IMG/VR virus record: IMGVR_UViG_3300043568_002650
Span: 512-64,511 of that record
Source: a virus
Taxonomy: Duplodnaviria; Heunggongvirae; Uroviricota; Caudoviricetes
DNA length: 64,000 nucleotides
Reading direction: 5' to 3' (one strand)
The position numbers and the translations under genes were made by a program. Positions 39,940 through 64,000 of the stretch are shown here, in pieces (position 1 is the stretch's first letter; every line of letters starts with the position of its first letter). The notes beneath the pieces are model-generated. The model was given only the letters and a program-made list of their open reading frames with translations. It was not told where the DNA came from and ran no database searches.

Positions 39940-40860
39940 AATTCCTGGGGGATTTTTTCCCGGTGGAGAGGGGACACTTATCCAAGGGGGCGAGGTCACA
40001 AAACTCTTGGTACTCTATAATTATAAGGGGTACACGGGCAGGCATACACGGGGAGATACTTGGGGAGTATACCTGGGGGAGAGAAACAAGAAACCCTGAG
40101 TTAAACTAACCCAGGGTACCTTCTTACCTAAAACCTTTAATAAAAATGAAAAACAGAGGAATTCAAGCTCCGTTATATTGTTATTATACATAGAGTCTTG
40201 GCTGGATTAAAATAGGAGGAGGAAAAAAGGCCAGGAAAGGGCTCCTAGCCATGGGGGATTCTCGGGGCCCGGTGAGGGGACGGATTTTCGGGGCCAGGGC
40301 GGCCTATAGTCACAAAATTTAACTCGAAATTGCTAGCTAGTCTATCTAGCCTATCTAGTCTATCCTGATAGGCGCTCGGCCAGGGGCTCCTGGGGGCCTG
40401 CCAGGCGGTAAAATGTACCCCTGGGGCTGTCTCCTGGCCGACTGGTCCATGCCTACTGGCCAGACCGGCTCCTGGAGCTGATTCCTGCTAGTCTAGCCAG
40501 CTAGCTATCGAATAGTCCGGTCTCAGGCGCTCGGCCAGGCGCGGTTCTGGTTCCTAGCTAGGCGAATTATTAATCCAATAGCGTCTCTGGCTAGGCGAGC
40601 TTGACAGGTCTGCCGGTTGTGTCGGCTTGGCTTAATCCATTCGTGTCTCTGCTCGACTCTTGACCTGTGCTAAACCCTAAGCTAGACTGTTGCTTAGCGT
40701 CTCTGTTCGAAAAAGATCTATGCACTCGTGTCTCTAGTAATTTTTAGAGACCGCTTGATCTAGCACAGATCCTGGAAGAAAACGCTTCTTCTGCGGGTGC
40801 TAACACCTTTTCCGGTCTCCCGACTTTTATGCTTGGAAGATTGTCAGGGTTAATATAGAT
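39940..40860. other. GC-rich non-coding strand-switch region (candidate genome end, origin or packaging region)
   Basis: no ORF in the track; G runs, CCWGG and CTAG clusters, GGCGCTCGGCCAGG twice; divergent gene blocks either side. Confidence 0.6.
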
Positions 40861-41012
40861 TGGTTATATTTACTATCAGGCTCGGTCCATGGGGAATGAG
40901 ACTTTTTGCTAAGCTAAATACAACTTGTACTCTCTTGATATTTAATCTAGTAAACGCATTACCGATTGGAACTAATTGGTTATATTTACTATATAACTTA
41001 AAACATGAAAGT

Positions 41013-41192
41013 ATGACAACATCAGACATTAGAGCAGAGATCGTAGAGTTAATTAATTCAGGAATCTTAAACGTTCCTAAGATAGTAAAATACTTTCGTC
41101 AGTATCGACCTGAAGCGGATCTAGAGAAGGTCAAGGAAGAGGCAAAAGAATTAGTTGCGCAGGCGAGAGAAACTATTAAGCGTGGATATTAA
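41013..41192 (+). CDS. early hypothetical protein
   Basis: ATG after early promoter; terminator 41199-41222. Confidence 0.7.
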   Translation: MTTSDIRAEIVELINSGILNVPKIVKYFRQYRPEADLEKVKEEAKELVAQARETIKRGY

Positions 41193-41321
41193 GTTTAGAA
41201 CCCGAGCAATCGGGTTTTTTAGTGCAGACTGGCCATGGGTCTCCAGCTTTTTATTATCCTAATTTCTACCGAGGTTAATAAAAAAGTATTATATTTACTA
41301 TATAACTTAATAACAAAGAAG

Positions 41322-41474
41322 ATGAAGATAGTATTATTGTTTATCGCAGTATGTGCAGGTGTATGGACATGGAATCATCCTTTCCCGCCGAGAGTAAACG
41401 ACTTTAGCATAGCAGTTTTAGTAACGTTCGGCATTTACAGAGAATTGAGAAAATTAGTAGAAAACGAAAAATAG
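41322..41474 (+). CDS. early small membrane protein
   Basis: two hydrophobic segments after promoter. Confidence 0.65.
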   Translation: MKIVLLFIAVCAGVWTWNHPFPPRVNDFSIAVLVTFGIYRELRKLVENEK

Positions 41475-41482
41475 AGTAATAT

Positions 41483-41719
41483 ATGAAACGAGTAAGTAAG
41501 CGTATTGAGTTCGGGAATACCGCGTGTCATGGTCTATTACTACCAGTTAAATGGTTTTTAGATGAGGTAGAGGTAACCGAAATGGAATACTATGGTATTA
41601 CACTCCAAACTACGATTGAGGATATAGGCAAGGAGCCTGCAGACATGTTGGACTATCAAGAGTGGCTGATGAAGAGGAGTCTAATTAGGCATAGAGACGG
41701 AGTAGACTTCTTATTTTAG
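41483..41719 (+). CDS. early hypothetical protein
   Basis: 78 aa ORF. Confidence 0.7.
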   Translation: MKRVSKRIEFGNTACHGLLLPVKWFLDEVEVTEMEYYGITLQTTIEDIGKEPADMLDYQEWLMKRSLIRHRDGVDFLF

Positions 41720-41847
41720 GCGAGGTCAAGGCGAGCACAGCGGTTCGCCTTTTTCATGCAGACAGGCGGAGTGTCTCCCGACTTTTATTATTAGAAACGC
41801 ATTACCGATTAGAATAGATTGGTTATATTTAACCATAACTTAAAAAC

Positions 41848-41997
41848 ATGAAGATTATGAAAAGTTTATTAAATGTAGTATTGCTTAGTGTTGGACTTAT
41901 CCTAGTTGCTTTTGGAAATGATTGGGGATTATTAGGCATGGTGCCAGCCTTCTTTCAGATGTTAAAAGAGGATGTTAAAGAGGAGATAGAATTCTAG
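41848..41997 (+). CDS. early small membrane protein (49 aa)
   Basis: ATG directly after promoter module. Confidence 0.6.
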   Translation: MKIMKSLLNVVLLSVGLILVAFGNDWGLLGMVPAFFQMLKEDVKEEIEF

Positions 41998-41999
41998 TC

Positions 42000-42152
42000 A
42001 TGGAAGTATTAAACCTGATTACCGTTGAGCTGGCTAGGCTCGCTCTTCGGCTCGTACCTGGGAGGGTAGAGACACGTGGATACCTGTTGACTGTTCGTAA
42101 GTCGGAACATCGATGCCAAAGAGTCGCCTACAACCGGACACAGAAGAAATAA
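42000..42152 (+). CDS. early small basic protein (50 aa)
   Basis: follows previous stop by 2 nt; terminator at 42156. Confidence 0.45.
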   Translation: MEVLNLITVELARLALRLVPGRVETRGYLLTVRKSEHRCQRVAYNRTQKK

Positions 42153-42207
42153 CGAAGGCGGGAAATTACTCCCGCCTTTTATTGGTCTAGTATGTTCAGG
42201 TCTCTAC

Positions 42208-42939
42208 TTATGCAAGCAGTGTAATCGCGTAGTCAAGTCCGATAGAGACTGGCTGGATCTCATAGATCACGTGTGGAAGAATAGTCATAGTGCTTAGGAA
42301 ACCCGACTTATCTGTCCATGTAAATGGAATCGATCCTCCGTTGATTGCTGCTCCACGTGCTGGCGAGTAAAGGATAGCTGTAATTGGAGTGTCTCCCTTG
42401 GTCGGTACTTCAGGAGAAGAGAAGGTAATCCTAATACTTTCAAGTCCTAAAGCTCGAAAGAAGTCAGCTCGTAAATATATTGTCTCTTCTGTAATCTTAT
42501 CGATAAACTCGCTGAAGTCACCCTCAGTTACAGCCTTAATAATCTCCATTTCCCAATATTTCCTAATCTTGGCTAGTTTAGTATCGTCTCCACCTGCATC
42601 TTCAATAAACTTTTTAACAGTATCTGCATTGGGTACTAGATTCGATGCAACTGCTCTAACACTAAATAGCTCTGCTCGAGTCTGCATATCACTAAATCTT
42701 TGATATAGAGAAGCGCGTTTAGTCCTTTCGATAGGGAGAAATTCAATAGTCGTAGTTACACCATCCGTTTCTACTTCTTCTGATACAATATCTAGTGCAT
42801 AGAAAGTCTCTTGAATCCAGTTGGAAGAAGGAGTAATATTTAACATAGGTTTAAGTCTTGTTGGAGTCTCCTCAGCAGTCAGTTGGGGATCAGCCGCTGC
42901 AATGGGTGAAGGTAATTGGTAAGCTCTAGTATATGGCAT
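42208..42939 (-). CDS. hypothetical late-promoter gene inserted in early region
   Basis: 243 aa; GATAAATA upstream on - strand. Confidence 0.75.
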   Translation of the reverse strand: MPYTRAYQLPSPIAAADPQLTAEETPTRLKPMLNITPSSNWIQETFYALDIVSEEVETDGVTTTIEFLPIERTKRASLYQRFSDMQTRAELFSVRAVASNLVPNADTVKKFIEDAGGDDTKLAKIRKYWEMEIIKAVTEGDFSEFIDKITEETIYLRADFFRALGLESIRITFSSPEVPTKGDTPITAILYSPARGAAINGGSIPFTWTDKSGFLSTMTILPHVIYEIQPVSIGLDYAITLLA

Positions 42940-43069
42940 TCAGTAATAATTTTTTATTATTTATCGGATCTAGTAGATCAATCGGGTCTCCCGCTATTTT
43001 TATTTAGAAACGCATTACCGATTAGAGTAAATTGGTTATATTTACTATATAACTTAAAAACAACGAGAT

Positions 43070-43213
43070 ATGAAAAGATTAGAGTTAATTACATTAAGAG
43101 CTATGCAAGGATTAACTATTACATTGGGAACAATGGTAGTAATTGCAATTGGTTACGCATTCATTCAGGTTGCAACTGGTAATATCCACAGTAGCGCAAG
43201 TTTCGAGTTTTAG
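43070..43213 (+). CDS. early small membrane protein (47 aa)
   Basis: ATG after promoter; TM helix. Confidence 0.6.
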   Translation: MKRLELITLRAMQGLTITLGTMVVIAIGYAFIQVATGNIHSSASFEF

Positions 43214-43430
43214 CGACACCAATCTTCTTGGAAATAGATTACTGGCGGGCCTCAAAGCTCGCCTTTCTTGTTTCCATTTATTGTAGATAGGTGGAGCGTC
43301 TCCTATTTCTACCCACAAAAAAGATGTTACTAAAATTTAGTAACACCGATCTCTTGATAATTATTATTGGAAACGCATTACCAGATTGTATAAATTGATT
43401 ATATTTACTTATAACTTAAAACACAAGACT

Positions 43431-43631
43431 ATGAATCAGATTATTAAAATGGCACTAGAAAATGTTGTACTTTGCAGAGGTACAAACACAGCGAGTGAAT
43501 CTTATGATTACGCTAAGCGAATGGAGCGAGTAATTAAAGATAACCTTGTTGAGAGACTTAAAGAGATTGCCCTAAATCCTGGAACGGCATTGGAAGAACT
43601 TGATAATTTTATTACCCAACTAGAAAAATAA
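43431..43631 (+). CDS. early hypothetical protein
   Basis: ATG after promoter. Confidence 0.7.
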   Translation: MNQIIKMALENVVLCRGTNTASESYDYAKRMERVIKDNLVERLKEIALNPGTALEELDNFITQLEK

Positions 43632-43637
43632 GAGGAG

Positions 43638-43943
43638 ATGATAAGAAAGAAGAGAGAACAGAAGGAACTAGTAATCGATCTTACTGGACCAGACGGAAAT
43701 GTATTTGTGCTAATGGGATACGCTCGTACGCTGAGTCGTCAAATACGAGAGCTGTATGAGGACGAGATGACAACTAATCGTGAACATAATCAGATTCTAC
43801 TAAAGCTAGGCATGGCAGATGCTAAAGCTTTTCCTGAAAACTTGGCTGATCGGATCATTGCAGAGATGACATCATCAGACTACGAGAACGCGGTGGAAGT
43901 ATTCGACCGATATTTTGGGAGCTTCGTGATATTGGACCGATAG
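43638..43943 (+). CDS. early hypothetical protein
   Basis: IDLTGPDGNVFVLMG motif. Confidence 0.75.
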   Translation: MIRKKREQKELVIDLTGPDGNVFVLMGYARTLSRQIRELYEDEMTTNREHNQILLKLGMADAKAFPENLADRIIAEMTSSDYENAVEVFDRYFGSFVILDR

Positions 43944-44229
43944 AAGGTGTTTGTTTTAAGTTGGAGACTTGGGGTTGGCTTGTGCCAGCCCTTTGTTGTT
44001 TACTCCGTAGTGACAGTTTTAGATCAAGACCTGATCGGGCTGTCTCTAGGAATTCTTGGAGACGGGCTAGCCTGCACAATTGCTGTGTACATGACCTGTT
44101 GATGACAACTCTTTAAACGGTTGCAAACAACTTTTGTGTCTCCCGCATTTTATTACTTTTTATTTTCGAAAACGCATTACCCATCCAAAGATTATAGTTA
44201 TATTTACTTATAACTTAAAAACAAAAGAT

Positions 44230-44442
44230 ATGAAAGCTAATGTAAAAGAATTAATGATGAATGCTAAAGAGGCCCTATCTAAAGGTAATCAAATGGTTGC
44301 AAGCGATCACTTAAATAAGGGAATAATCGTCCTCGCTCGATTAACACAAGAGGGAGTGGTAAATACCGAAGGTGCGTCAGTTGACCGATGGAAAGAGAGA
44401 TTTTGGTTTGAGTTAGAAGTCAACGATCTCATCGAAGATTAG
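44230..44442 (+). CDS. early hypothetical protein
   Basis: ATG after promoter; terminator 44462. Confidence 0.7.
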   Translation: MKANVKELMMNAKEALSKGNQMVASDHLNKGIIVLARLTQEGVVNTEGASVDRWKERFWFELEVNDLIED

Positions 44443-44534
44443 AGACACTCAAGATCCTTCTAAACCCGGTTAATCCGGGTTTTTTTATGGAACCTACCCT
44501 CGATTTGGAGTATATAATAAAAAGGAGACCCGCT

Positions 44535-44726
44535 ATGGAAGAACAAATCGAACGTACCCTAGACCAATATTACGACTGGAACAGACCCGAGATAAAAGAT
44601 CTGCAGATACTTGAAGAGTCTCCTGACTTGGGAATCCTGTGTATCCGATGGAGACACCGTGACAAGACCATTACAGTAAAGTCGATATTACAAGATACTA
44701 CACTATTATTAACTGTGTTGAGATGA
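44535..44726 (+). CDS. hypothetical protein
   Basis: ORF; start 44487 or 44535. Confidence 0.55.
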   Translation: MEEQIERTLDQYYDWNRPEIKDLQILEESPDLGILCIRWRHRDKTITVKSILQDTTLLLTVLR

Positions 44727-45022
44727 TGAAGAAACCTTTTAGAGAATGGGCACGCGATCTAGAAGTGGAGATAATATTGGACCGTGATGGAATCAATTTC
44801 TTCCAATGGACTCTCGAAGACGAGTACGAGTCTAGACTGAGTGAAGCTCTGGAATATTTCAGTCAGCGCCCCGACTACTTGAGACAAGAGTGTCAGGAAC
44901 ATCTAATCGAATTAGACCACTTAGAGACTCGCTTTGTCGAGATCGAAGAGTACGAGAAATGTGCCGCCATCCGAGACTTACGTATCGATCTCCAATCTAG
45001 ATATAAGGAATTCTTGGATTAG
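44723..45022 (+). CDS. UVR-motif protein
   Basis: FVEIEEYEKCAAIRDL. Confidence 0.65.
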   Translation: MMKKPFREWARDLEVEIILDRDGINFFQWTLEDEYESRLSEALEYFSQRPDYLRQECQEHLIELDHLETRFVEIEEYEKCAAIRDLRIDLQSRYKEFLD

Positions 45023-45138
45023 CAAGTATCCAAACGTCTCTTGACAAATCTGAAATTATTTAGAAAAAAAGTGTTAAAAAGTTTTTCCCGTTAAAATAAA
45101 ATAGTTATATTTACTTATAACTTAAAAACAAGCACAAC

Positions 45139-45360
45139 ATGAAAAACAAACTAGATATTAAAAGTGATGCTGCTGACATAGTAGAGATGACTCGACCTTA
45201 TCTTGAGATCCCTACCAGCATGATTATAACTATTAAAAAGAATCTTAACTCACTTCTTAAAGAGGAGGCAGAGGGCGACCCAATGGCGATCGCTGCTATT
45301 CGTGCCGCATGGCATATGGAGATATTTGATGCGGATGTTGAACTTGTAAAAAGAAATTAA
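45139..45360 (+). CDS. early hypothetical protein
   Basis: ATG after promoter. Confidence 0.7.
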   Translation: MKNKLDIKSDAADIVEMTRPYLEIPTSMIITIKKNLNSLLKEEAEGDPMAIAAIRAAWHMEIFDADVELVKRN

Positions 45361-45452
45361 GATGTATAGAAGAAAAAGAGCAATACTGAAGGACTACGTC
45401 TCCTTAATTGTAAAGAGACGTGCACAGTACAGAACAATCCAGACTGTTAACA

Positions 45453-45614
45453 ATGAAGAAGGTTGTTAGAGACCCGCACAAGATCAGGCTCACAGCTAGT
45501 CGCGAGTCGCAGAAGAGTCAAGGATTCTTCGATGGTAGATTCGTAGCGAGAGCAGAGGAGTCGAAGAAGAGTTATAAACGTAAACCCAAACACCCAAACG
45601 GAGATGAGGACTAA
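45453..45614 (+). CDS. small basic protein, ArfA-like C-terminus
   Basis: GRFVARAEESKKSYKRKPKH. Confidence 0.5.
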   Translation: MKKVVRDPHKIRLTASRESQKSQGFFDGRFVARAEESKKSYKRKPKHPNGDED

Positions 45615-45834
45615 AGAGTTATTTGCAGAAGACCTAGGTAATGGTAAGACGAGAGTATTTGGACCGTGTGTCTTTACTGGAGAAGAATACAGTTGTGAAG
45701 TACCTACGCAAGGTCTCGAGAGACACCTAGCAGGGGAGCATGCACAGACCGCAATGCCGTCGGTTAGCGCCGATGACAGAGAGTTCCTGATCTCGGGAAT
45801 CTCGCCAGCTGGCTGGAAAAAAACTTTCGGCTAG
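45604..45834 (+). CDS. early hypothetical protein
   Basis: C..TG...C; SADDREFLISGISP..W. Confidence 0.7.
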   Translation: MRTKELFAEDLGNGKTRVFGPCVFTGEEYSCEVPTQGLERHLAGEHAQTAMPSVSADDREFLISGISPAGWKKTFG

Positions 45835-46010
45835 TCAAGTTTTTAAGTTATCGAAGAAGGGGAGCTCGCAAGGCTCCCTTTCCGGTTTACTCCGTAGTGG
45901 CTATTTTAGATCAAGACCCGATCAAGGTGTCTCTAGTCTTTTATTACCCAGTATTCTACCAGTGTATAATAAAAATTATTATATTTACTTATAACTTAAA
46001 ACTAAAGAGT

Positions 46011-46166
46011 ATGACAAAAGGATTTAAAGAGTTACTAAAATTAGCTAAGTCTGCAAAGGTAACAACGTATGATGAATTACAAAACTTGGTCTATGAGTGT
46101 ACCAACGAGATTACTGGAGCCGATTTCGAATGCGTTAGGCAACAGTTAAAGATTAGAATGTTTTAG
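46011..46166 (+). CDS. early hypothetical protein
   Basis: ATG after promoter. Confidence 0.65.
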   Translation: MTKGFKELLKLAKSAKVTTYDELQNLVYECTNEITGADFECVRQQLKIRMF

Positions 46167-46385
46167 ATAATCTTTAAACCCGAGCAATCGGGTTTTTTCA
46201 TGCAGCTTGCTCGCGGGTCTCTGGGAATTCTTAGAGACGAGCCTGATCGGGCAGATGTCTTAGGGGTCCGCGAGTTGTTAACGTCGGCTGGCAACTAAAT
46301 TAGTCTCTTGCTATTTAATTACCCAATCCCTACCAACGTATATAAGAAATTATTATATTTACTATATAACTTAATCCACTAGACC

Positions 46386-46691
46386 ATGACAAAGAAGATA
46401 AACTGCACAGACGTGTATCAAGCTATTCAGGACTTTCTCGGCGGAGAGAACGGTAGTCCACTAATGAACGAACCTTATCGTGACTCGGACGGAGACATAG
46501 TATTTGCAGATTACAATGGAGTAGAGTTTTACGAGCACGCTCTACTTGATTGGTATCGTTCTCTAGTTGAGGATAAGCTTATTGCTGACTCTTTGGAGAC
46601 AGCCGGTGTCAGCATTGAATTGGTTGACGATTATGATTGGCTGGAATCAGACGACCAATTGGATGACGATGAGGATGAAGAAGATTATTAA
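46386..46691 (+). CDS. early highly acidic protein
   Basis: D/E-rich tail. Confidence 0.7.
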   Translation: MTKKINCTDVYQAIQDFLGGENGSPLMNEPYRDSDGDIVFADYNGVEFYEHALLDWYRSLVEDKLIADSLETAGVSIELVDDYDWLESDDQLDDDEDEEDY

Positions 46692-46861
46692 AGTATTGTT
46701 TTAAGTTAAGAATCAGCTCGAGTAATCGGGCTTTTTCTTTTTTGGTTGGATTAGGATCAGGCTGGCGAGTCTCTAGACTTTTATGTAAAAATAGTTACTC
46801 AAGAAGTGTACTAATTAATAAATTATAGTTATATTTACTATATAACTTAAAAACAAAAAGG

Positions 46862-47017
46862 ATGTACAGTTTAAAATGTGATTACTACACAAAGGAGTTC
46901 CCAACGCTAGAGGAGCTCATCGATGATGTTATGGCCAGCGGAATGGACCCCAACCATGAGGTGACAAGAGACGGTCGAGGTACTGGCGAAGATGCCATTG
47001 ATTTTATCATGTTCTAA
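46862..47017 (+). CDS. early small protein (51 aa)
   Basis: ATG after promoter. Confidence 0.65.
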   Translation: MYSLKCDYYTKEFPTLEELIDDVMASGMDPNHEVTRDGRGTGEDAIDFIMF

Positions 47018-47019
47018 TT

Positions 47020-47220
47020 ATGGAGACGTCACTACTTAGCATGTTCCACGAGTTGAATTCATTCGTGCCATGCGCTCAGTACTTCAAATCGGCCAGCGAC
47101 TCTGGAATCACGGTCAGTAATAATAGAAAATTCGCAGGTCTCGTAAGGGAGTGGTCCGCTGGAGACTACGACGAGTGTCCAGACTTGCTAGTACAGAGAT
47201 TAACCAACTTAATCCATTAA
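47020..47220 (+). CDS. early hypothetical protein
   Basis: ORF in operon. Confidence 0.65.
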   Translation: METSLLSMFHELNSFVPCAQYFKSASDSGITVSNNRKFAGLVREWSAGDYDECPDLLVQRLTNLIH

Positions 47221-47223
47221 GCC

Positions 47224-47400
47224 ATGTCAACAAGTGTAAAGTTAATTAGAGGAAATGCAATAGAGATTGAGGTAGGAACCCGTGTAGAGTTCACAGTCGG
47301 CGACGAAGTATTAAGTGATACTATAACCTTTATTGGAGACGACACAATAGAAGGCGAGAAGTTTGACCTAACCCATACTCGATTCCGAGTAGTAGAGTAA
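47224..47400 (+). CDS. early small protein (58 aa)
   Basis: ORF in operon. Confidence 0.6.
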   Translation: MSTSVKLIRGNAIEIEVGTRVEFTVGDEVLSDTITFIGDDTIEGEKFDLTHTRFRVVE

Positions 47401-47620
47401 CAAAGAGCAGCCTAAGCGAGTGTCTCGGCCGGGTAAAGGTGCCGCCGCCAAGAAAGAGACAGGACAGGGGTCAGCGAGAGCTGGCCCTTTCCGGTTTACT
47501 CCGTAGTAACCGTTTTAGATCAAGGCTGGATCCGAGTGTCTCTAGACTTTTATTTCTGCAGGATTTTTTTATTTAAAAGATTATAGTTATATTTACTATA
47601 TAACTTAAAAACAAAAAGAA

Positions 47621-48034
47621 ATGAAAGCAGGAAAGTATTTTATTGGTGACCTATGCTATGTATTAGGAGACCGTTGGGATGAGGTATGCAGCCTCATTAT
47701 TATTGACCATAGTTGTTTGGACGGAGAGTTCGAGCTTAGTGATGGGACCAAATTTGCGATCTATGGCACCGCACATGGAGATGGCGTATATCCTGATCAG
47801 AGAGGCAATGGGTATCCAGTAGATTCGGGTTCGATTGGTTGTGTACTAGTTGATGATATAACAGAGGGAGAATTGGATGAATCCCTAGGAAATATCCATG
47901 ATTTTGAGGAGGACTTTAAGACCGGTGAGGAGAATGGAATAATTAGGATCGGTGATGTTGATATCGATACTCGAGGAGAGTGTGATGACGAGGACCTAGA
48001 TGAATATTTTGAGGACGAAGATGAAGATTACTAG
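47621..48034 (+). CDS. early acidic protein
   Basis: YFIGDLCYVL...TAHGDGVY..VDSGSIG. Confidence 0.75.
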   Translation: MKAGKYFIGDLCYVLGDRWDEVCSLIIIDHSCLDGEFELSDGTKFAIYGTAHGDGVYPDQRGNGYPVDSGSIGCVLVDDITEGELDESLGNIHDFEEDFKTGEENGIIRIGDVDIDTRGECDDEDLDEYFEDEDEDY

Positions 48035-48190
48035 AGTATTGTTTTAAGTTAAGGGTTGGCTCGAGTGATCGGGCCTTTTCTTTGTTTAATCCACGAGTGT
48101 CTCTAGACTTTTGTGCCCAAAAGTTTCTGCAAGATTTTTTTATTTAAAAGATTATTGTTATATTTACTATATAACTTAATAACATAACCT

Positions 48191-48427
48191 ATGTCAGTAG
48201 CAAAAAACAAAGAAGAATGGTGGAGCCTAGTAAGAAGGGACCTCGCTAAGTGGAATGCAGAGAACCATCCAGAAGATCGCATGGGTATTCAAGACTGGAT
48301 CGGCGAAGTTGGACCTAAGATTCATGGATGGATCGCTTTCAGAGATGATGATGGCGATTGGGATGCTTCGTTGAGCGGATTTCCAGAGTACGACGATGAG
48401 GACGAGGATGATGATTACAATTACTAA
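48191..48427 (+). CDS. early acidic protein
   Basis: ATG after promoter. Confidence 0.7.
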   Translation: MSVAKNKEEWWSLVRRDLAKWNAENHPEDRMGIQDWIGEVGPKIHGWIAFRDDDGDWDASLSGFPEYDDEDEDDDYNY

Positions 48428-48438
48428 AAAATAAGAGT

Positions 48439-48660
48439 ATGAAAGTATATCAATTACAGCTATGGGCAACTATCTCATACACACCAGGAGGAGTGTGTCT
48501 AGAGGTAGGTAAGACTTTTGCCAACCGGGAAGATGCCGACAAGGAACTCGATAAGCTCAATAAGAAACTATCCAGAGAATACGACGAGGACGAGGAATTC
48601 CGAGGATTCGAATTGGATTGCGAACCGAACTGGTATATTGAAGAAATAAAAATAAAGTAG
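48439..48660 (+). CDS. early hypothetical protein
   Basis: ORF in operon. Confidence 0.7.
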   Translation: MKVYQLQLWATISYTPGGVCLEVGKTFANREDADKELDKLNKKLSREYDEDEEFRGFELDCEPNWYIEEIKIK

Positions 48661-48771
48661 CCAAGCCCGCGGCCCGCGTCTCTTGTAAAACTTTCAAAAA
48701 AGTTTCCGCAGAATTGTCAAGATTAAAAGATTATGGTTATATTTACTATATAACTTAAAAACATAAAGAGT

Positions 48772-49017
48772 ATGGTATTAGAACCAATTGCACCAGAAAC
48801 GTTACGCGCTCGCCTAAGAGAGGGAGTCGTACAGTTCGCTTTCAAGAAAGTGGACGGAACATTGAGAACCGCTGTAGGCACCACAAACCTTGCCACGATT
48901 CCTGTAGAGAATCATCCAAAGGGCACAGGAACACCTTCCGACAAGTCGGTAAGATTCTTCGACGTGGAGAAGAGAGAGTGGAGAAGTGTGAGTATCCTAC
49001 GTGAAATCTATCTATAA
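48772..49017 (+). CDS. SH3-like beta-barrel (WYL_2/DUF2693-like) protein
   Basis: LREGVVQFAFKKVDGTLRTAVGTTN...FFDVEKREWRS. Confidence 0.75.
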   Translation: MVLEPIAPETLRARLREGVVQFAFKKVDGTLRTAVGTTNLATIPVENHPKGTGTPSDKSVRFFDVEKREWRSVSILREIYL

Positions 49018-49018
49018 G

Positions 49019-49234
49019 ATGAGCACACTAAAGGTAGGAGACACAGTAATGTGGCGTGGCGGATTCGGGAGTGAACCGCCGCGCAAAGCAAAAGTGATTG
49101 GACTAGAGGTATGCCCAGCCGGAGAAAAGTATGGGGAGAGCAGAGACCATGTTGAGTGGAGCAAGATTCACTCCGTAGTGGTAGACCTCGATAATGGTCA
49201 CTGGGCGAAGGGTCATCAAATCTCTCCGCTATGA
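49019..49234 (+). CDS. early hypothetical protein
   Basis: LKVGDTVMWRGGFG. Confidence 0.7.
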   Translation: MSTLKVGDTVMWRGGFGSEPPRKAKVIGLEVCPAGEKYGESRDHVEWSKIHSVVVDLDNGHWAKGHQISPL

Positions 49235-49392
49235 GTATCCTAAGGTTTACAGATGGTGAGAGCTTTGATACTTCAGGGCCCATCAGAAAGGAGGAACGTT
49301 ACGATGGATGGTACGTATTAGGAGACGGGAAGATGATTCCTGTAAGGGACGAGGAAGAAGCAGATAAGGTAATCGAGAGATTAACTAGATAG
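49231..49392 (+). CDS. early small protein (53 aa)
   Basis: ATGA overlap with upstream stop. Confidence 0.6.
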   Translation: MSILRFTDGESFDTSGPIRKEERYDGWYVLGDGKMIPVRDEEEADKVIERLTR

Positions 49393-50070: not shown

Positions 50071-50082
50071 TAAGATATAACT

Positions 50083-50680: not shown

Positions 50681-50685
50681 TGATT

Positions 50686-54491: not shown

Positions 54492-54494
54492 GAT

Positions 54495-54827: not shown

Positions 54828-55036
54828 GCAAACAAAGAGCATTAGGCTTTAAGCAATTGGCCTGCAAACTGTGCGGTGAGATCGTACACAAAGTAGATAT
54901 TAACGCGGATGCAATTACCTGTTCTGACTGTGTACAGAAGGAATTGAATGGCGGATTCTCCATGACGGAGGACCAGTATTGGGAAGCGGTAAGAGCAGGC
55001 AGAGTAGTCTCTTGCAAAAGTGACGAGGAGGAGTAA
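54824..55036 (+). CDS. small zinc-finger protein
   Basis: CKLC...CSDC. Confidence 0.7.
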   Translation: MSKQRALGFKQLACKLCGEIVHKVDINADAITCSDCVQKELNGGFSMTEDQYWEAVRAGRVVSCKSDEEE

Positions 55037-55111
55037 AAATATTTTTGCCAGGATTGTACACTGTCAAGAATTATTGTTACATTTACTATATAACTTAAAA
55101 ACTAAAAGATT

Positions 55112-55831
55112 ATGAGATTCGAAACATCAGAAAATTTGCCGAAGTATTTTAAGACAATTCAAAAAAGCAAACCATTAACAGTTGCTGAAGAGGGTCAATT
55201 AGTATTAGATATCCAGACTGGAGACTCGCAAGCAGTTGCGGCACTGGTGCAGGCAAACTTAAAGTTTGTAGTAAAAGTAGCTAATCGACATATGGGACAA
55301 GGCGTGCCAATTGATGACCTAATCCAGGAAGGGAACATAGGTTTGATAGAGGCTGCTCAAGCGTTCAAGCCGCGTGAAGGACAGAGATTTATTAACTATG
55401 CTCAACTGTGGATCAGGAAACGTATCAACGAGTCAGTCGCTAAGACTGGCCGAATCGTTCGCTTACCTCACAACCAAGAGTACGAGATCTTTAAGTCTAA
55501 AAGAAAAGGAGAAGAGGTTGAGGCGCCAACTCGAGTAAGCATTGACAAGAAGATTGGAGATGAGGGCGAGAACACGCTAGGAGATATTATCCTTAAAACT
55601 GGATCTGAAGTAGAGTTTGCAATGGAGATGGACTCAATCAAGTTCAGAGTAAAGCAGGCTCTTAGTGTTCTTAAAGAACGTGATCGTGGAATTATCATGG
55701 ACTACTTTGGTATTGAGAGAGAGTACGAGGTGCCAACTGACATGATCGCCGAGAAATACTCAATGACTAATGTTCGAGTGTGCCAAATCGTAAAGGCATC
55801 AGTTGAAAAGATGAAATTAACAATTATATAA
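55112..55831 (+). CDS. RNA polymerase sigma70 factor (RpoD/RpoS-like) 2, early
   Basis: ANLKFVVKVANRH, DLIQEGNIGLIEAA..F..RFINYAQLWIR, region 4 HTH. Confidence 0.93.
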   Translation: MRFETSENLPKYFKTIQKSKPLTVAEEGQLVLDIQTGDSQAVAALVQANLKFVVKVANRHMGQGVPIDDLIQEGNIGLIEAAQAFKPREGQRFINYAQLWIRKRINESVAKTGRIVRLPHNQEYEIFKSKRKGEEVEAPTRVSIDKKIGDEGENTLGDIILKTGSEVEFAMEMDSIKFRVKQALSVLKERDRGIIMDYFGIEREYEVPTDMIAEKYSMTNVRVCQIVKASVEKMKLTII

Positions 55832-55847
55832 TTTACTCCGTAGTAAG

Positions 55848-56183
55848 ATGAAGAAGGTAATATTATTCAACGGTGAGGACGAAGTAATCGTAACTCCCGA
55901 AGAGATTAAAGAGATGGGGAAATGTGCACCAAAAGAATTAGTATCCTACTTCCAGGCAACTACGATCTATAGAGACGTGATGAAGGATCTCATCAAGGAC
56001 TTGGGCAAGGCAGTGTTAAGTGTTAACGATGAAGAGTTAACTGATCTACGTATCCGGATGGTAGAGTCAGGATATCAAACTATCGCGGCCGAACTGATTG
56101 AAGTATTTGGTGAAGACACTGCTGCCATGATCATGGCTCAAACATATAACGCTATAAACCTAGAGAAAGATGGAAGCATTTGA
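55848..56183 (+). CDS. hypothetical protein
   Basis: ORF in operon. Confidence 0.7.
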   Translation: MKKVILFNGEDEVIVTPEEIKEMGKCAPKELVSYFQATTIYRDVMKDLIKDLGKAVLSVNDEELTDLRIRMVESGYQTIAAELIEVFGEDTAAMIMAQTYNAINLEKDGSI

Positions 56184-56427
56184 TGATCAAGAATTTATCG
56201 CTAAATTAGAAGAGTTAAAGGAGAAAGATATCGACGGATTCATGGGTCTAGTTCTTCTTTCTCTAAAAACCCATCCCGATGTCGCAGTACAAGCTAATAC
56301 ACCCATTGAGAACAAGGTCACGGCCATGAAGAGGGTACTAAAACATTTCGAAGAGAGGGAGGACTATGAGGACTGTGCCTTTCTTCGAGACCTACAAAAA
56401 AGGATTGAAGATGCAGAGGAGAGATAA
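56170..56427 (+). CDS. UVR-motif protein
   Basis: HFEEREDYEDCAFLRDL. Confidence 0.65.
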   Translation: MEAFDDQEFIAKLEELKEKDIDGFMGLVLLSLKTHPDVAVQANTPIENKVTAMKRVLKHFEEREDYEDCAFLRDLQKRIEDAEER

Positions 56428-56668
56428 GTATCTTGTAATGAGTAATAAAGATTTAGACCTTGATTGGGAGCAAGCGCTGAGAGAGACACTCGGCGTTTGT
56501 CATACAGTAAAGCAAGCATATCAAATCGCTCTTTTTCTTGGAGAGATAAGCAAGCCTGATTCAAGTTATCGTAAAGTACTAGAAACTATTAAAGTAAAGG
56601 GTGCTTATACTATTCACCAAAAGGGAGGAGATCAGGCTGCGACAATCGTACAAATAAAACACTATTAA
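56411..56668 (+). CDS. hypothetical protein
   Basis: ORF in operon; start uncertain. Confidence 0.6.
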   Translation: MQRRDKYLVMSNKDLDLDWEQALRETLGVCHTVKQAYQIALFLGEISKPDSSYRKVLETIKVKGAYTIHQKGGDQAATIVQIKHY

Positions 56669-56669
56669 C

Positions 56670-56864
56670 ATGGCAAAGAAAGAAACACCTGAATTACTAG
56701 CTCAAGAGAAGCTAGAGCGCGTCTCTACTTTTGTAGAGGACCGCAAAGAGATTTATTTACAAGAACACAGAGACGCAAGTACCGATGTCGAGAAATTTAT
56801 TTGGTCGGAAATGATTGGATTACTTGATGAAATCTCGATGATTACCGAAGCCGAGAGTCTCTAG
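56670..56864 (+). CDS. hypothetical protein
   Basis: ORF in operon. Confidence 0.65.
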   Translation: MAKKETPELLAQEKLERVSTFVEDRKEIYLQEHRDASTDVEKFIWSEMIGLLDEISMITEAESL

Positions 56865-56938
56865 CTTTTTATTTCTGCCGGATTGTCATGGTTAGGATTA
56901 ATTGGTTATATTTACTTATAACTTAAAAACTAAAGCAG

Positions 56939-57181
56939 ATGACTAAAGAAGAATTTAAAGCTGGCGTTCTATTTCTACACAACGTAAAGAACGATTATCA
57001 ATTTAATCCTAATGATCCAGGATATTTAGGCTTCCTCAACTGTGGAGAGGATATTACAGACGATCCAGGATTTATGATAGTCGTCGATAATCAGGAAGAG
57101 TTCGAGCCAATCATGGAGGAATTAGGACTTACCACCGAACAAGGCATCCATGCTGAAGAGACAGTATTCACCCTAATCTAA
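56939..57181 (+). CDS. early hypothetical protein
   Basis: ATG after promoter. Confidence 0.7.
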   Translation: MTKEEFKAGVLFLHNVKNDYQFNPNDPGYLGFLNCGEDITDDPGFMIVVDNQEEFEPIMEELGLTTEQGIHAEETVFTLI

Positions 57182-57187
57182 GACGAC

Positions 57188-57343
57188 ATGGACTTTTACA
57201 AATGTAAACAATCAGGAGACATATTCACTGAGAACGAGATGTTAGACGAAGTAGATGAGGATGATAACTTAGATTCTTTCTACCACATCGGAGATTTTAA
57301 GACACAGGAAGAAGCAGAACAATTTCTAAAAACACTAAGATGA
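57188..57343 (+). CDS. early small acidic protein (51 aa)
   Basis: fills operon gap; stop overlaps next ATG. Confidence 0.6.
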   Translation: MDFYKCKQSGDIFTENEMLDEVDEDDNLDSFYHIGDFKTQEEAEQFLKTLR

Positions 57344-57609
57344 CACAAGAACAAGCGCAAGTAGTAGCACAAATCCTAGAGAGATTTGATTTTGAGAAAG
57401 TACTCAAGCACATGCAATCAGTAGATTGGAAGTGGTTCGATGAGGTGCCTGATATGGATGATATTAAAGGTACTGCCACTCGTCTCCTAGTCGAAGCTCA
57501 AATGGATCCGCAAGAGGTGGTATCAATGGGAACAGGAGGATTCAGAGTTTACAAACTTCCTTGGGGAATCGAACTTATCTTCTCAATCGAAAGAGGAGGA
57601 AGCTTCTAG
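57340..57609 (+). CDS. early hypothetical protein
   Basis: FDFEKVLKHMQSVDWKW...GTGGF. Confidence 0.7.
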   Translation: MTQEQAQVVAQILERFDFEKVLKHMQSVDWKWFDEVPDMDDIKGTATRLLVEAQMDPQEVVSMGTGGFRVYKLPWGIELIFSIERGGSF

Positions 57610-57711
57610 TCTGGCAGCGGGCCGAGTCTCTTGACTTTTGTTCGAGCCCGATTGTCAAGATTAAAAGGAAATTATTATATTTACTTAAGTCAAATCACTA
57701 AAAATAAAATT

Positions 57712-58092
57712 ATGGCAACTAGAAGCAGAATTGGAGTAGAATTAAAAGGAGGCAAAGTTATTTCAGTGTATTGTCACCACGATGGATACATTACCGGAGT
57801 CGGTTTAGATCTCATAAAGAAGTTCCCACTCATGACCGATCCAAAAATCGTAGAGGCCTTTATCAGGGAGGGCGATCGTTCATCAATCGACCTGTCTTAT
57901 AAAGAATGGAGAGACGAGAAGTGTCCGCCACAAAAACGTGCATCAGTACCACTATTTTTCAATGGAGATATTGAGGCGTATGGATACCTTTACACGGCAG
58001 AGGGAGAATGGTTGGTAAAGAAGGCGGGTTCACAAGTAGAACCGGACCCTGTCCCACTAGATTATGTATTAACTGGAATCATAAACCTGTAA
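57712..58092 (+). CDS. early hypothetical protein
   Basis: MATRSRIG...SVYCHHDGY. Confidence 0.75.
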   Translation: MATRSRIGVELKGGKVISVYCHHDGYITGVGLDLIKKFPLMTDPKIVEAFIREGDRSSIDLSYKEWRDEKCPPQKRASVPLFFNGDIEAYGYLYTAEGEWLVKKAGSQVEPDPVPLDYVLTGIINL

Positions 58093-58095
58093 GCT

Positions 58096-58281
58096 ATGTG
58101 GTATGAAATCAATGTAAGTAAAGATGGGAAGCACTACTTTGCCACCGATGAGAGATCAATCAGTACAATTGATAAGGCGACTGAAATTAGAGACCGACTT
58201 AGACTGGCCATGCCAGAAGACGAAGGATTTATGTATACAATTACACAGTGGCAAACATCCGGTGTACAGTTAGAGAATTAG
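58096..58281 (+). CDS. early hypothetical protein
   Basis: YEINVSKDGKHYFAT. Confidence 0.7.
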   Translation: MWYEINVSKDGKHYFATDERSISTIDKATEIRDRLRLAMPEDEGFMYTITQWQTSGVQLEN

Positions 58282-58464
58282 ACCAAGGTTCCTGCATTTC
58301 CTGGTCGGGTCAGCTTCTTAAGGGGCTGGCCTTTTTTGGGTCCACTCCGTAGTAAAGTTTCTAATTCCTACAGCACAGCGTCTCTAGCTTTTTTATTCTG
58401 CAGGATTGTCATGGTTAGGATTAATTGGTTATATTTACTATATAAACTAATAAACACGATACCG

Positions 58465-58902
58465 ATGAAATTAAAAATCTGTAATAATCTTCACCTCATC
58501 GATGGAAAGATCATAAGCTATTCAACTACGGTAGGTCGAGTGACTCCAACTGGAATAAAAGTAAATGGTAAATATAGCAGGTCTACCACTAAGCATGTTG
58601 AGAAAATCGCTGGAATATTAGGTATTCCAATAGAGTATATTAGCAAGGAAAACCAATGGTTTGATTGGTACGAACTTGGAGCTAACGTCGAATACGATGG
58701 AGCGATTAGTCAAAAATCAACACTAGTTATCTTATCAAAAATACGAGAGACTGGTTGCAGTCTAGTCAATGCGGCAGTACTTGCCTTATCTGAAATAAAA
58801 GGAAAGGACCAGCTTAACTGTATAAACCAACTACTTAAAAAAGGAGTTGATCGTCAGAGAATAGATGACATTCTTACGCTAAGCCAACTTGGATTAATAT
58901 GA
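58465..58902 (+). CDS. early hypothetical protein
   Basis: ATG after promoter; KYSRSTTKH. Confidence 0.7.
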   Translation: MKLKICNNLHLIDGKIISYSTTVGRVTPTGIKVNGKYSRSTTKHVEKIAGILGIPIEYISKENQWFDWYELGANVEYDGAISQKSTLVILSKIRETGCSLVNAAVLALSEIKGKDQLNCINQLLKKGVDRQRIDDILTLSQLGLI

Positions 58903-59000
58903 TCGTTCAGGCACCAGTGTCTCTTGACTTTCTTCACCATATAATTGTCAAGGTTAAAAGATAATGGTTATATTTACTCTATAACTAATATAAAAAGCAG

Positions 59001-61917: not shown

Positions 61918-61935
61918 GTTGGTTTGACGACGGGA

Positions 61936-61960
61936 AAGGGAGCTTCGGCTCCCTTTTTTT
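61936..61960 (+). terminator. intrinsic terminator
   Basis: AAAGGGAGC-TTCG-GCTCCCTTT followed by U tract. Confidence 0.85.
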
Positions 61961-62225
61961 GTGCCTAATATTTTACTCCGTAGTCCGGGTCTCTGCTATC
62001 GCGCGTCGTAACACGCCCGCCCGTACACGGGAGCAGGCCCGGGTCTCTGGTTTTCCCTGCCCGCCGGGGCTCATGACAGCCTAGTCTACCATGGAGCTCG
62101 AGGCCCAATCTAAGGAGGCACAGTTTCCCTTGGCGAGGCTTTGTCACATGACCGGTAAGTTTCTATATAGACGAGAAGAGGGTCCCTTAGAGAGAGCCTG
62201 TTAGACTGATGTCATGAAGTAACTA

Positions 62226-62600
62226 TTAGAAGCCTTTGAATAGACGGTGATGTATGAGTCTATCCATACCTCCTTCACGTAGAGACTGGAGATCCTGTAA
62301 ATTAATTAGGATTACCTGGGCAGGAGAGCTACCACCGCCATCGTCAGTATCGTCCATGATCCAGACAGCATTTACCCCAGGCAGGAGCTCATGCACGCTA
62401 CTCTCTACCTCGCCACTCTTAGTCAGCGGTAAGATATTATTAAAGGTAGTAAGCATCCCATCAAGCTCGGCCCAGATAGGATCCTTCTCGGTGACGGTCA
62501 CGATTGGAGACTCTATCCGCTTTAAGATCGCGGCACGTTGCCAGTCATAGAGTATCTCGTCTATCTCTTCGGGCAGGTTAGGTATAGTATAGTGCTTCAT
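62226..62600 (-). CDS. hypothetical protein
   Basis: 124 aa; C-terminal LFKGF resembles its neighbours. Confidence 0.65.
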   Translation of the reverse strand: MKHYTIPNLPEEIDEILYDWQRAAILKRIESPIVTVTEKDPIWAELDGMLTTFNNILPLTKSGEVESSVHELLPGVNAVWIMDDTDDGGGSSPAQVILINLQDLQSLREGGMDRLIHHRLFKGF

Positions 62601-62603
62601 AAG

Positions 62604-62963
62604 TTAAAAATCTTTAAATAGGTAGGTTATCGCCGAATTCCCATTAAAGTCCCGAACAGCAAGTAAATAGCGTGGGGTCGTCTTAACGTAGGCGGGGATA
62701 TACGTTTCGCCGAAATTGAAGCAGTACATATTGTTGAGGTCATATTCAGTACTACTCCAATAGGATGCAAGTTGCCATTTGCTGGCTCTAACATTAGGAA
62801 TCTTTGAGACATTCGGCAGGAGGATCCTTTTAAATTCATCAAGTGTCGGTGCCCTCCAATTTGGACCTAGTGCAGCCATAGCATCTAGCGCTTCTCCCCA
62901 AGTCATCTTGCCAAAATCCTCTGGCCAAACCTGTAAATCCTCTATTATTATCACGTCTTCCAT
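62604..62963 (-). CDS. DUF1566 (C-lectin-fold) protein B
   Basis: MTWGEA..WRAPTLDEF..YWSSTE..AVR. Confidence 0.85.
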   Translation of the reverse strand: MEDVIIIEDLQVWPEDFGKMTWGEALDAMAALGPNWRAPTLDEFKRILLPNVSKIPNVRASKWQLASYWSSTEYDLNNMYCFNFGETYIPAYVKTTPRYLLAVRDFNGNSAITYLFKDF

Positions 62964-62966
62964 AAG

Positions 62967-63317
62967 TTAAAAGTTTTTTAGTAATAAGCCAATCGCAATC
63001 TCTCCAGTAATGTCCCGAACCGCACGCACATAAGATGTGGTGAGCTTAAAGTAGTCGTGAGCATTCCCATTGTAGACGTTGAAGAACCACGCGATGTTGG
63101 CGTCACGCTCTGTACTACTCCAATAGTAGGCGAAGGATATAGTTTTTCCAAACAGTTTCTCCCTATTTGGATAGAGTACCTCCCTAAATTCTTCAATGGT
63201 CGGCAGGCGCCAACCTGGACCTAGCTTAGCTACTTCAGCTGTAGCTTCGTCCCAAGTCATCTTACCAAGATCCTCGGGCCAAATTTCTAACTCCTCTATT
63301 ATTAGCGCGTCTCTCAT
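62967..63317 (-). CDS. DUF1566 (C-lectin-fold) protein A
   Basis: MTWDEA..GWRLPTIEEF..YWSSTE..AW.FN..G....YVRAVR. Confidence 0.88.
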   Translation of the reverse strand: MRDALIIEELEIWPEDLGKMTWDEATAEVAKLGPGWRLPTIEEFREVLYPNREKLFGKTISFAYYWSSTERDANIAWFFNVYNGNAHDYFKLTTSYVRAVRDITGEIAIGLLLKNF

Positions 63318-63328
63318 AAAGATATTTA

Positions 63329-64000
63329 TTACATTAAGTCGGAAAGATTCTCCTTGCTAGGAGTCTCTGGCTTGTCCTCCCAATTAGGTGTGATCTTGCC
63401 GGGGTGCTCGCGTCTCTGCTTTTTCCTTGGCACAGGTAAGACATCCCCGTCTAGCTTGTCTAACCTGTCTACCCCTGCTTTAAGTAGGAGATTCGTGAGA
63501 TCCTTCTCCTGTTCTAACCTATACTCTGGCACCGTGATGGCCGAGTTGATTACCACCACCTCTACCCCATAATATCGGAACCAGGCCGGAAAGATCTCCC
63601 AGCCTACTCGAGCCAGTCTGTCCGGCGTCTCTACTATAATCACCGACACCTTCTTTTTAATTACATCTTGGATTAGCTCATGCAGACCGGGTCTCCAGTC
63701 CAGAGAGAAGTCAGTAGCCGGGCACCAGTCGTCGTAGAGCTTTTCCAGAGAGATACCCCGCTGTGCTGACCAGTTTCGGACTAGTTGTTGTTGTCTCTGC
63801 ATGAGGGCTCGGTCGGACTCCGTAGTCCCGGCTACCCTACAATAGGCTACAGCCCAGTTATCTCGCACAAGTCTCTTGCCGAGTAGAGCATAGATGTCGT
63901 CGTCCCAGTACATCTTACGACCTTTGGCGTCTTCGCTATACCTGATCCTACCTTTCTTGGTCCATGACTTTAGGGTGTTATAGCTACAGCTGAGTACCTC
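63329..64000 (-). CDS. tnpA: IS607-type serine recombinase (MerR-like HTH plus resolvase), 5' end outside the window
   Basis: frame open to the edge (CSYNTLKSWTKKGRI); AYCRVA, QRQQQ, ETPDRLARVG. Confidence 0.85.
   Translation of the reverse strand, partial: EVLSCSYNTLKSWTKKGRIRYSEDAKGRKMYWDDDIYALLGKRLVRDNWAVAYCRVAGTTESDRALMQRQQQLVRNWSAQRGISLEKLYDDWCPATDFSLDWRPGLHELIQDVIKKKVSVIIVETPDRLARVGWEIFPAWFRYYGVEVVVINSAITVPEYRLEQEKDLTNLLLKAGVDRLDKLDGDVLPVPRKKQRREHPGKITPNWEDKPETPSKENLSDLM

Follow-up and report, generated by a model that had tools for sequence, protein, structure and literature searches.

The window analyzed here is a stretch of 64,000 nucleotides, bases 512-64511 of a linear 128.5-kb IMG/VR virus record (IMGVR_UViG_3300043568_002650) from an uncultured lake phage; by CheckV the record is about half complete, and it is a fragment without genome ends. 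The window includes an array of about 26 near-identical early promoter cassettes, all on the + strand (Table 1), and in the early region that contains them the word GTCTC and its reverse complement GAGAC are over-represented. This excess is composite: about a third of the copies belong to a conserved non-coding DNA word, to which composition-driven copies in coding sequence are added.

The promoter cassettes and their upstream box

The promoters span 40864 to 58968, and the cassettes all follow one order: an upstream box, a T-tract, the promoter elements TTGTCA-N18-TATATT within the core TTATATTTACT, a leader (A)TATAACTTAAAAAC, and an ATG about 25 nt further on. An earlier note on this sequence had placed GTCTC about 40-70 nt before nearly every early promoter, as the start of a motif GTCTCT(A/T)G(A/C)CTTTT. 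We find the word 49-70 nt ahead of the core at 24 of the 26 early promoters, the other two having the one-base variants CTCTC and ATCTC, and the motif given in the note fits the box seen at the promoters, for which we obtain the consensus cGnGTCTCYnGAmTTTT in a single orientation.

The distance from the word to the core takes few values. It is 49/50 nt at 17 promoters, 59/60 at 5, and 69/70 at 2, so that the distance classes are whole helical turns, and the word sits at about -62 to -58 or one to two turns further out. Where the spacing is longer, the extra helical turn is an A/T-tract unit. When the comparison is extended to 97 non-redundant promoters from this phage and from its relatives with a GTCTC box, 56 are found at 49/50, 15 at 59/60, and 3 at 69/70. 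The T-tract CTTTTATT lies 9-17 nt past the word, at about -53 to -45, which is the position of an UP element.

In the promoter comparison, the box (cGnGTCTCYnGAmTT) is an island of information between variable flanks, and no conserved partner, such as a -35-like element for a phage sigma factor or the other half of a bipartite site, was found upstream of it. We considered the box as the -10 or the -35 of a second promoter, and this was ruled out by the lack of a conserved upstream partner element.

The regional excess of GTCTC and GAGAC

By sites, we mean GTCTC and GAGAC together, and we compare the early region (40400-64000) with the late region (1-39500). There are 127 sites in the early region, or 5.4/kb, against 54 in the late region, or 1.4/kb. 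Because base composition alone predicts about 1.2-1.5/kb, the late region is ordinary, with the site neither avoided nor in excess, and the early arm is enriched about 3.6-fold. In the full 128.5-kb record, the enriched stretch covers about 40-76 kb. Set against the first 39.5 kb, the early region has no 5-mer more enriched than GAGAC/GTCTC, and comparison with a maximal-order Markov model likewise ranks this pair first among its 5-mers, whether or not the promoter modules are masked. The regional over-representation proposed in the earlier note is thus real, and its counts by eye were good: roughly one site per kb in the first 28 kb (we count 34, or 1.2/kb), 8 sites in 44400-45100, and 6 in 50080-50400, the last two reproduced exactly by our recount.

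The sites fall into two classes with different orientations. Over 40400-62100, where the split was made, non-coding DNA holds 52 sites in 6.1 kb (8.5/kb), 41 of which are + strand GTCTC, and coding DNA holds 65 sites in 15.6 kb (4.2/kb), 54 of which are sense-strand GAGAC. On the + strand between 40 and 64 kb there are 59 GTCTC and 68 GAGAC, and the orientation tracks this coding/non-coding split, not the polarity of the genome.

This balance bears on one possible function. Chi sites act in one orientation, and a Chi-like word on incoming DNA could restrain the RecBCD/AddAB nuclease of the host. A word that is short and varies between lineages would suit such a role, and the GGAGCGG of the relatives described below contains AGCGG, the Bacillus Chi. 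However, there is no strong strand bias, and Chi leaves the phase-lock to the promoters unexplained. We regard this explanation as extremely unlikely.

Coding copies and composition

Most of the intragenic copies follow from the codon and amino acid usage of the early genes. Sense GAGAC occurs at 3.44/kb in early genes versus 1.12/kb in late genes. By recoding, the expected density rises from 0.81 to 1.24/kb through amino acid composition, and to 2.0/kb when early codon usage is used. Amino acid composition thereby accounts for about 1.5-fold of the early/late difference, the early proteins being richer in Glu, Asp, and Arg, and codon preference for about 1.6-fold: GAG makes up 0.56 of the Glu codons in early genes versus 0.30 in late genes, and GAC 0.48 versus 0.27 of the Asp codons. 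A residual context excess of 1.4-1.7-fold is left for GAGAC, and the late genes likewise show 1.4-fold. Two-thirds of the intragenic excess is composition. The GC-richer codons of the early genes may be tuned to the tRNA pool of the host, and the codons of the late genes to tRNAs of the phage itself.

With a strict set of 39 genes and synonymous shuffling, GAGAC is observed 39 times versus 27 expected (z 3.2, rank 11), and no enrichment is seen for GTCTC. A strong intragenic motif had appeared in crude open reading frames (ORFs), where GTCTC and GAGAC ranked 1-2; some of those ORFs were on the wrong strand or overran promoter modules, the signal faded with the strict genes, and we rejected it. 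Of the two dense coding clusters singled out in the earlier note, the first is largely explained in this way and the second is a gene with xGA-GAC codon pairs (Table 1), the sixth site of the second one, GTCTC at 50388, being the box of the next promoter. After amino acid and codon correction, a check that the note had called for, the coding enrichment is mostly lost whereas the non-coding enrichment persists. There is a caution here for anyone reading k-mer counts: about half of a striking excess is ordinary codon and amino acid bias, because the early genes are GC-richer than the late ones (GC3 of 0.41 in 40896-61917 versus 0.25).

These results also bear on one part of the earlier note's reading of the excess, namely restriction decoys, modification sites, or sites for a protective coat that would mark or protect the arm injected first. 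GTCTC is the asymmetric type IIS site of BsmAI, its frequency is raised in a single arm, and CCGCTC, which contains the word of the relatives described below, is also a known asymmetric restriction site. On the other hand, no DNA methyltransferase of the three main families (PF01555, PF02086, PF00145) was matched in the 128.5-kb record, about half of a genome; the late region has the site at its expected frequency, with no avoidance; two-thirds of the intragenic excess goes to composition; a decoy needs no fixed promoter geometry; and no genome end lies within the record to set a polarity of injection. Modification, decoy, coat, and a first-injected arm are left without support, and we hold this family of explanations to be very unlikely.

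Non-coding copies outside the promoters

Non-coding DNA outside the promoter modules has 21 sites in 2.84 kb versus about 4.3 expected, and GTCTC and GAGAC are there the first and second of all 1024 five-mers. Among them are inverted pairs and a ladder of same-strand copies ahead of the first promoter (Table 1). In the ladder, GTCTC is found at 40429, 40520, 40583, 40645, 40699, 40730, and 40815, and five of the six spacings are at most 0.15 turn off a whole number of helical turns. Within it, TTAATCCA-N5-GTCTCTG is repeated at 62 bp.

A DnaA-box-like word, (T)TAATCCA or TATCCA(C), lies 4-6 nt ahead of several GTCTC copies (40570-40589, 40632-40651, 45025-45041, 48085-48104, 52438-52455). TATCC is the top 5-mer of the strict early genes after synonymous shuffling.

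Inverted pairs could also act in RNA, as GUCUC/GAGAC stems in read-through early transcripts that would serve as signals for processing, stability, or attenuation. For some N12 elements the sense strand does fold better, via G-U pairs (-14.3 vs. -5.5 kcal/mol for the element at 44042, and -12.3 vs. -6.3 kcal/mol for that at 46217), and inside genes it is sense GAGAC that prevails. Over 20 elements, however, there is no strand preference in fold stability (12 versus 8, mean difference -0.7 kcal/mol), and in the closest relative the element orthologous to that at 46217 has the opposite orientation. Moreover, promoter boxes occur without a partner arm, the palindromes with a 2-nt spacer form no hairpin, and Rfam has no match in the region. 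The palindromes fit DNA sites better than RNA hairpins, and a purely RNA role is unlikely because there is no sense-strand stability bias and the N2 forms cannot fold; as an account of the word as a whole, we consider an RNA-level element quite improbable.

Conservation and replacement of the word among relatives

Relatives were found by scanning viral contigs for the same promoter core. A broad core pattern gave mostly chance single matches and was discarded, and a narrower one produced usable relatives, whose early genes align to the window at 68-93% nucleotide identity. Nucleotide searches of a phage collection found no near relatives and protein searches found distant phages only, the nearest cultured phages having at most 33% identity for the two proteins that were tried.

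Conservation was evaluated on aligned DNA from three sets of relatives with a GTCTC box, at 73-84% identity. Of the promoter boxes, 24 of 25 are conserved versus 12.6 expected, and of the other non-coding sites, 15 of 18 versus 7.2 (39 of 43 versus 19.8 for non-coding sites overall). For coding sites, the figures are 48 of 85 versus 33.7. Of 435 five-mers compared outside promoter modules, none is better conserved than GAGAC/GTCTC.

The word itself is not the same in every phage that shares the core promoter. By contig, the box is GTCTCY in 7 (including the phage studied here), CGCTCY in 7, and GGCTCY in 1, and 3 have no box; some of the CGCTC-box contigs are near-duplicates, so that the GTCTC-box and CGCTC-box contigs together represent fewer than 14 independent lineages. 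CGCTCY is found at -48/-49 and -58/-59, which are the phased places taken by GTCTCY (-49/-50 and -59/-60), and GGCTCY likewise takes the phased position of the box. Contigs with a GTCTC box have 3.4-5.9 GTCTC and 0.6-1.4 CGCTC per kb, whereas those with a CGCTC box have 2.2-4.8 CGCTC and 0.85-2.7 GTCTC per kb, and this separation survives the subtraction of the box copies. The inverted pairs follow the box as well: relatives with a GTCTC box have 21 convergent GTCTC..GAGAC pairs and zero CGCTC pairs, and relatives with a CGCTC box have CGCTC..GAGCG pairs, including N2 and N12 forms, and a single convergent GTCTC..GAGAC pair. Against these CGCTC-box relatives, the sites of our phage are not preferentially kept (1 of 9). 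Each phage's own box word is also the word of its palindromes and the one that is common throughout its early region.

The array itself is plastic. The order of the cassettes is rearranged with respect to the closest relative, contig 3300044846_005100, and a cassette at 42192-42966 is absent from that relative; it has GTCTC at 42200 and 42986 on either side, and it carries a reverse-strand ORF of 243 codons (42208-42939) with its own terminator (42178-42155). The array includes 11 + strand terminator-like hairpins, several directly before boxes, and some cassettes are without one. Directly past terminator hairpins upstream of early promoters, ACTCCGTAGT recurs on the + strand at about 45900, 47510, 49460, 52370, 55840, and 58350. 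Its 5-mers ACTCC, CGGAG, and CGTAG rank in the top ten for conservation versus relatives, and relatives with a CGCTC box often carry it as CGCTCCGTAGT.

A candidate cis-regulatory word

We lean towards the reading that the GTCTC word is a cis-regulatory site, read by a putative sequence-specific DNA-binding protein, inside PeSL-like promoter cassettes. It is from the counts, positions, phasing, conservation, and covariation of the word that we infer such a reader, along with what it may be and whether it would activate or repress. Six features are those of a protein-binding site: the fixed orientation, the whole-turn spacing, the UP-like T-tract, the sharp conservation, the reuse in palindromes and ladder, and the replacement of the word in sister phages. 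Taken together, they point to a protein that works with RNA polymerase from one face of the helix.

In the mechanism that we propose, a copy of GTCTCY near -60 of nearly every early promoter, in one orientation and just upstream of the T-tract, would be read by the putative protein from one helix face beside RNA polymerase, in an arrangement like that of a class I activator. Alternatively, the protein at this place could be a repressor for early shut-off. The inverted pairs (N12, N9, and N2), some of them 85-96 bp upstream of boxes, and the ladder would serve the putative reader as auxiliary sites. The intragenic copies, mostly sense GAGAC, result from acidic early proteins, the GC-richer codons GAG and GAC, and a small context excess common to late genes. 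The activator binding sites suggested in the earlier note are the best-supported reading of about 45 non-coding copies, on the basis of orientation, 10-bp phasing, conservation, and word swap, but not of the intragenic copies, which are mostly codon and amino acid usage.

Because the word differs among phages that share a core promoter, a phage-encoded reader is more likely than a host factor, and it would perhaps be delivered with the DNA. Differing hosts behind the different words are possible as well. A bolder version, which we put forward only tentatively, is that each lineage has its own address word (GTCTCY, CGCTCY, or GGCTCY) and a co-evolving, phage-encoded, and possibly injected reader that would act on the boxes, the palindromic operators, and the sites dispersed over the early arm.

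Class I activator sites, such as those of CRP, are centered at -61.5, -71.5, or -82.5 and consist of a 22-bp dyad. The word here is centered near -60, upstream of a UP-like tract, and is displaced by whole turns only, in this phage and across the 97 promoters; by analogy, the geometry of the box matches a class I activator site. Unlike the CRP dyad, it is a single asymmetric word of 5-6 bp, and the protein is putative. With the MotA box of phage T4, too, a whole class of promoters has a short word particular to the phage at a set position, where a phage protein works with the host RNA polymerase. However, the MotA box takes the place of the -35 element, at -30, and depends on AsiA, whereas here a normal -35 is present and the word is at -60; Pfam and PHROG scans of the cluster found no homologue of MotA or AsiA. 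TF1 of phage SPO1 recognizes and bends hydroxymethyluracil DNA and has preferred sites among early promoters. In both cases the sites of a phage DNA-binding protein, putative here, cluster in the early-promoter region and would control early transcription, but TF1 does not use a defined 5-mer with phased spacing, and base modification is without evidence here.

Several observations weigh against a dedicated reader. For a specific regulator, 5-6 bp is a short target. Scans of 56 proteins in or beside the cluster with Pfam and PHROG found no classical helix-turn-helix family, and Pfam, PHROGs, and NCBIfam gave no candidate reader by name. Relatives with a CGCTC box often have it within an inverted repeat, GGAGCG-N19..40-CGCTCC, of which it forms the right arm and whose center varies (loci L015, L018, and L027); this also fits a structural or a recombination role. 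The lineage-matched effect within genes is weak: the observed/expected ratio of GAGCG is 0.74 in GTCTC-box phages versus 1.45 in CGCTC-box phages, and that of intragenic GAGAC is 1.39 versus 1.25. The uniformity of the box could result from recombinational homogenization of the cassettes and not from a co-evolving reader, and the phasing could partly come from a recurrent 10-bp A/T-tract insert. Finally, the timing class assigned to the promoters is inferred, as is the host.

The cassettes themselves have a known counterpart. The PeSL (promoter-early stem-loop) cassettes of T4-type phages comprise a promoter, an AT-rich tract, and a stem-loop, with no phased sequence-specific box described (Arbiol et al. 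2010, PMC2839356; Comeau et al. 2014, PMC4122927). In both cases, many near-identical cassettes with a strong sigma70-like promoter occupy the spaces between the small orphan genes of a plastic region, an AT-rich tract precedes the -35, stem-loops or terminators are nearby, here for several of the cassettes, and content and order vary between close relatives. The difference is that here a 5-6 bp word is locked near -60 in whole turns, reused in palindromes and in a ladder, and swapped in sister lineages. PeSLs also belong to T4-type phages, a membership that Pfam hallmarks leave unconfirmed here: gp23, gp32, and gp45-C were unmatched in this half-genome record, by a search in which the control genomes could not register these families either. 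We would describe the feature as a known kind of phage promoter cassette plus a lineage-specific, phase-locked word that is not in the PeSL descriptions.

As a rival explanation, there may be no dedicated reader. GTCTC could simply be a part of a PeSL-type terminator/promoter cassette, a stem-loop arm or bent DNA that is spread and homogenized by recombination, and the remaining copies could be composition. The fit to the PeSL description, small ORFs included (PMC2839356, PMC4122927), speaks for this explanation, as do the reshuffled cassette order and the cassette unique to our phage, the box as 3′ arm of an inverted repeat in CGCTC-box relatives, and the share of the coding copies that composition explains. 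But homogenization alone would keep the flanks too, and here the box is sharply conserved while the flanks vary. Only 4-5 of the 25 boxes of our phage have even a 4-bp upstream partner, the non-coding copies away from promoters are enriched and conserved as well, and the word recurs in N2 palindromes that are unable to fold. We judge this explanation rather unlikely.

If the cassettes move, the word could instead mark where they are cut or joined by a phage enzyme, a serine recombinase or a nuclease, in an integron-like system with attC-like inverted repeats. A gene with a Resolvase domain is present at about 63329-64114, the cassette specific to our phage is flanked by two copies of GTCTC, and inverted repeats with conserved ends and variable centers are found both in our phage and in CGCTC-box relatives. 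The PeSL authors themselves speculated on a recombination protein that targets the stem-loop (PMC2839356). Yet a helical phase-lock to the -10 and -35 and a single orientation are properties of promoters that recombination does not need, and the breakpoints are inseparable from the edges of the shared promoter homology. Recombination or cleavage marks thus seem to us quite improbable.

If the bolder version with an address word for each lineage is right, a phage could turn its whole early program on or off without regard to the regulators of the host or to relatives infecting the same cell. For large phages that lack an RNA polymerase of their own, the very strong and synchronous firing of dozens of early promoters, and their later shut-off, are understood in only a few models. 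A lineage-specific word locked to one face of the helix is a testable handle on a putative regulator in a large group of uncultured phages, and it adds a sequence-specific component to the concept of the PeSL cassette.

Table 1. Positions in the window of the over-represented region, the promoter array, and the individual sites and site clusters.
Feature	Start	End	Strand	Remark
Over-representation of GTCTC/GAGAC	40400	64000		127 sites, 5.4/kb
Array of about 26 early promoter cassettes	40841	58985	+	near-identical
Promoter box	40815	40828	+	49 nt before core
Promoter box	41239	41252	+	50 nt before core
Promoter box	41773	41786	+	core slightly degenerate
Promoter box	42986	42999	+	50 nt before core
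Promoter box	44138	44151	+	60 nt before core
Promoter box	45036	45049	+	69 nt before core
Promoter box	45929	45942	+	50 nt before core
Promoter box	46303	46316	+	50 nt before core
Promoter box	46769	46782	+	60 nt before core
Promoter box	47538	47551	+	49 nt before core
Promoter box	48099	48112	+	59 nt before core
Promoter box	48678	48691	+	59 nt before core
Promoter box	49572	49585	+	50 nt before core; duplicated cassette
Promoter box	49689	49702	+	50 nt before core
Promoter box	50388	50401	+	49 nt before core
Promoter box	50942	50955	+	49 nt before core
Promoter box	51295	51308	+	49 nt before core
Promoter box	52450	52463	+	50 nt before core
Promoter box	53113	53126	+	49 nt before core
Promoter box	54024	54037	+	59 nt before core
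Promoter box	55007	55020	+	70 nt before core; ahead of early sigma-factor gene
Promoter box	56857	56870	+	49 nt before core
Promoter box	57626	57639	+	49 nt before core
Promoter box	58380	58393	+	49 nt before core
Promoter box	58919	58932	+	49 nt before core
Ladder of seven same-strand GTCTC	40429	40819	+	GC-rich gene-free region before first promoter
Palindrome GTCTC-N12-GAGAC	40730	40751		85 nt upstream of box 40815
Palindrome GTCTC-N12-GAGAC	44042	44063		GAATTC center; 96 nt upstream of box 44138
Palindrome GTCTC-N12-GAGAC	45398	45419		between two small genes, no promoter near
Palindrome GTCTC-N12-GAGAC	46217	46238		GAATTC center; 86 nt upstream of box 46303
12-bp palindrome GTCTC-N2-GAGAC	45713	45724		intragenic
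12-bp palindrome GTCTC-N2-GAGAC	50152	50163		inside gene 50083-50382
GTCTC-N19-GAGAC pair	47138	47166		conserved at position 10728 of relative L010
Gene stretch with 8 sites	44400	45100	+	mostly sense GAGAC; coding class, largely composition
99-codon gene with 5 ORF sites	50083	50382	+	4 sense GAGAC, 1 GTCTC; xGA-GAC codon pairs, Gly/Arg-Asp

DNA-related genes and other features of the window

Among the 56 proteins scanned, the sole DNA-related matches are a sigma factor, a small WYL_2 protein, and a resolvase. The sigma factor is a sigma70-family protein of 239 aa with regions 2 and 4 (55112-55831, +), encoded within the cassette array behind its own boxed promoter. The WYL_2 protein (48772-49017) was considered as the reader and set aside: it is about 80% identical between phages with a GTCTC box and phages with a CGCTC box, with no obvious covariation with the word.

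A second sigma70-family gene lies at 32673-33557 (+) and encodes an RpoS/RpoD-like protein of 294 aa with regions 2-4. The resolvase is a serine recombinase on the - strand that runs past the end of the window, identified by its Resolvase N-terminal domain (E-value 7e-13), and it adjoins two Lcl_C/DUF1566 genes in the GC-rich terminal part of the window.

The segment 39940-40860 is GC-rich and gene-free, and it separates a divergent minus-strand block from the early array. It could be an origin or a structured RNA; GC skew gives no sign of an origin. Its nucleotide identity is 80-85% in relatives whose genes are 72-80% identical, and it holds CTAG-rich repeats as well as twin 18-mers, AGGCGCTCGGCCAGG, at 40370 and 40525.

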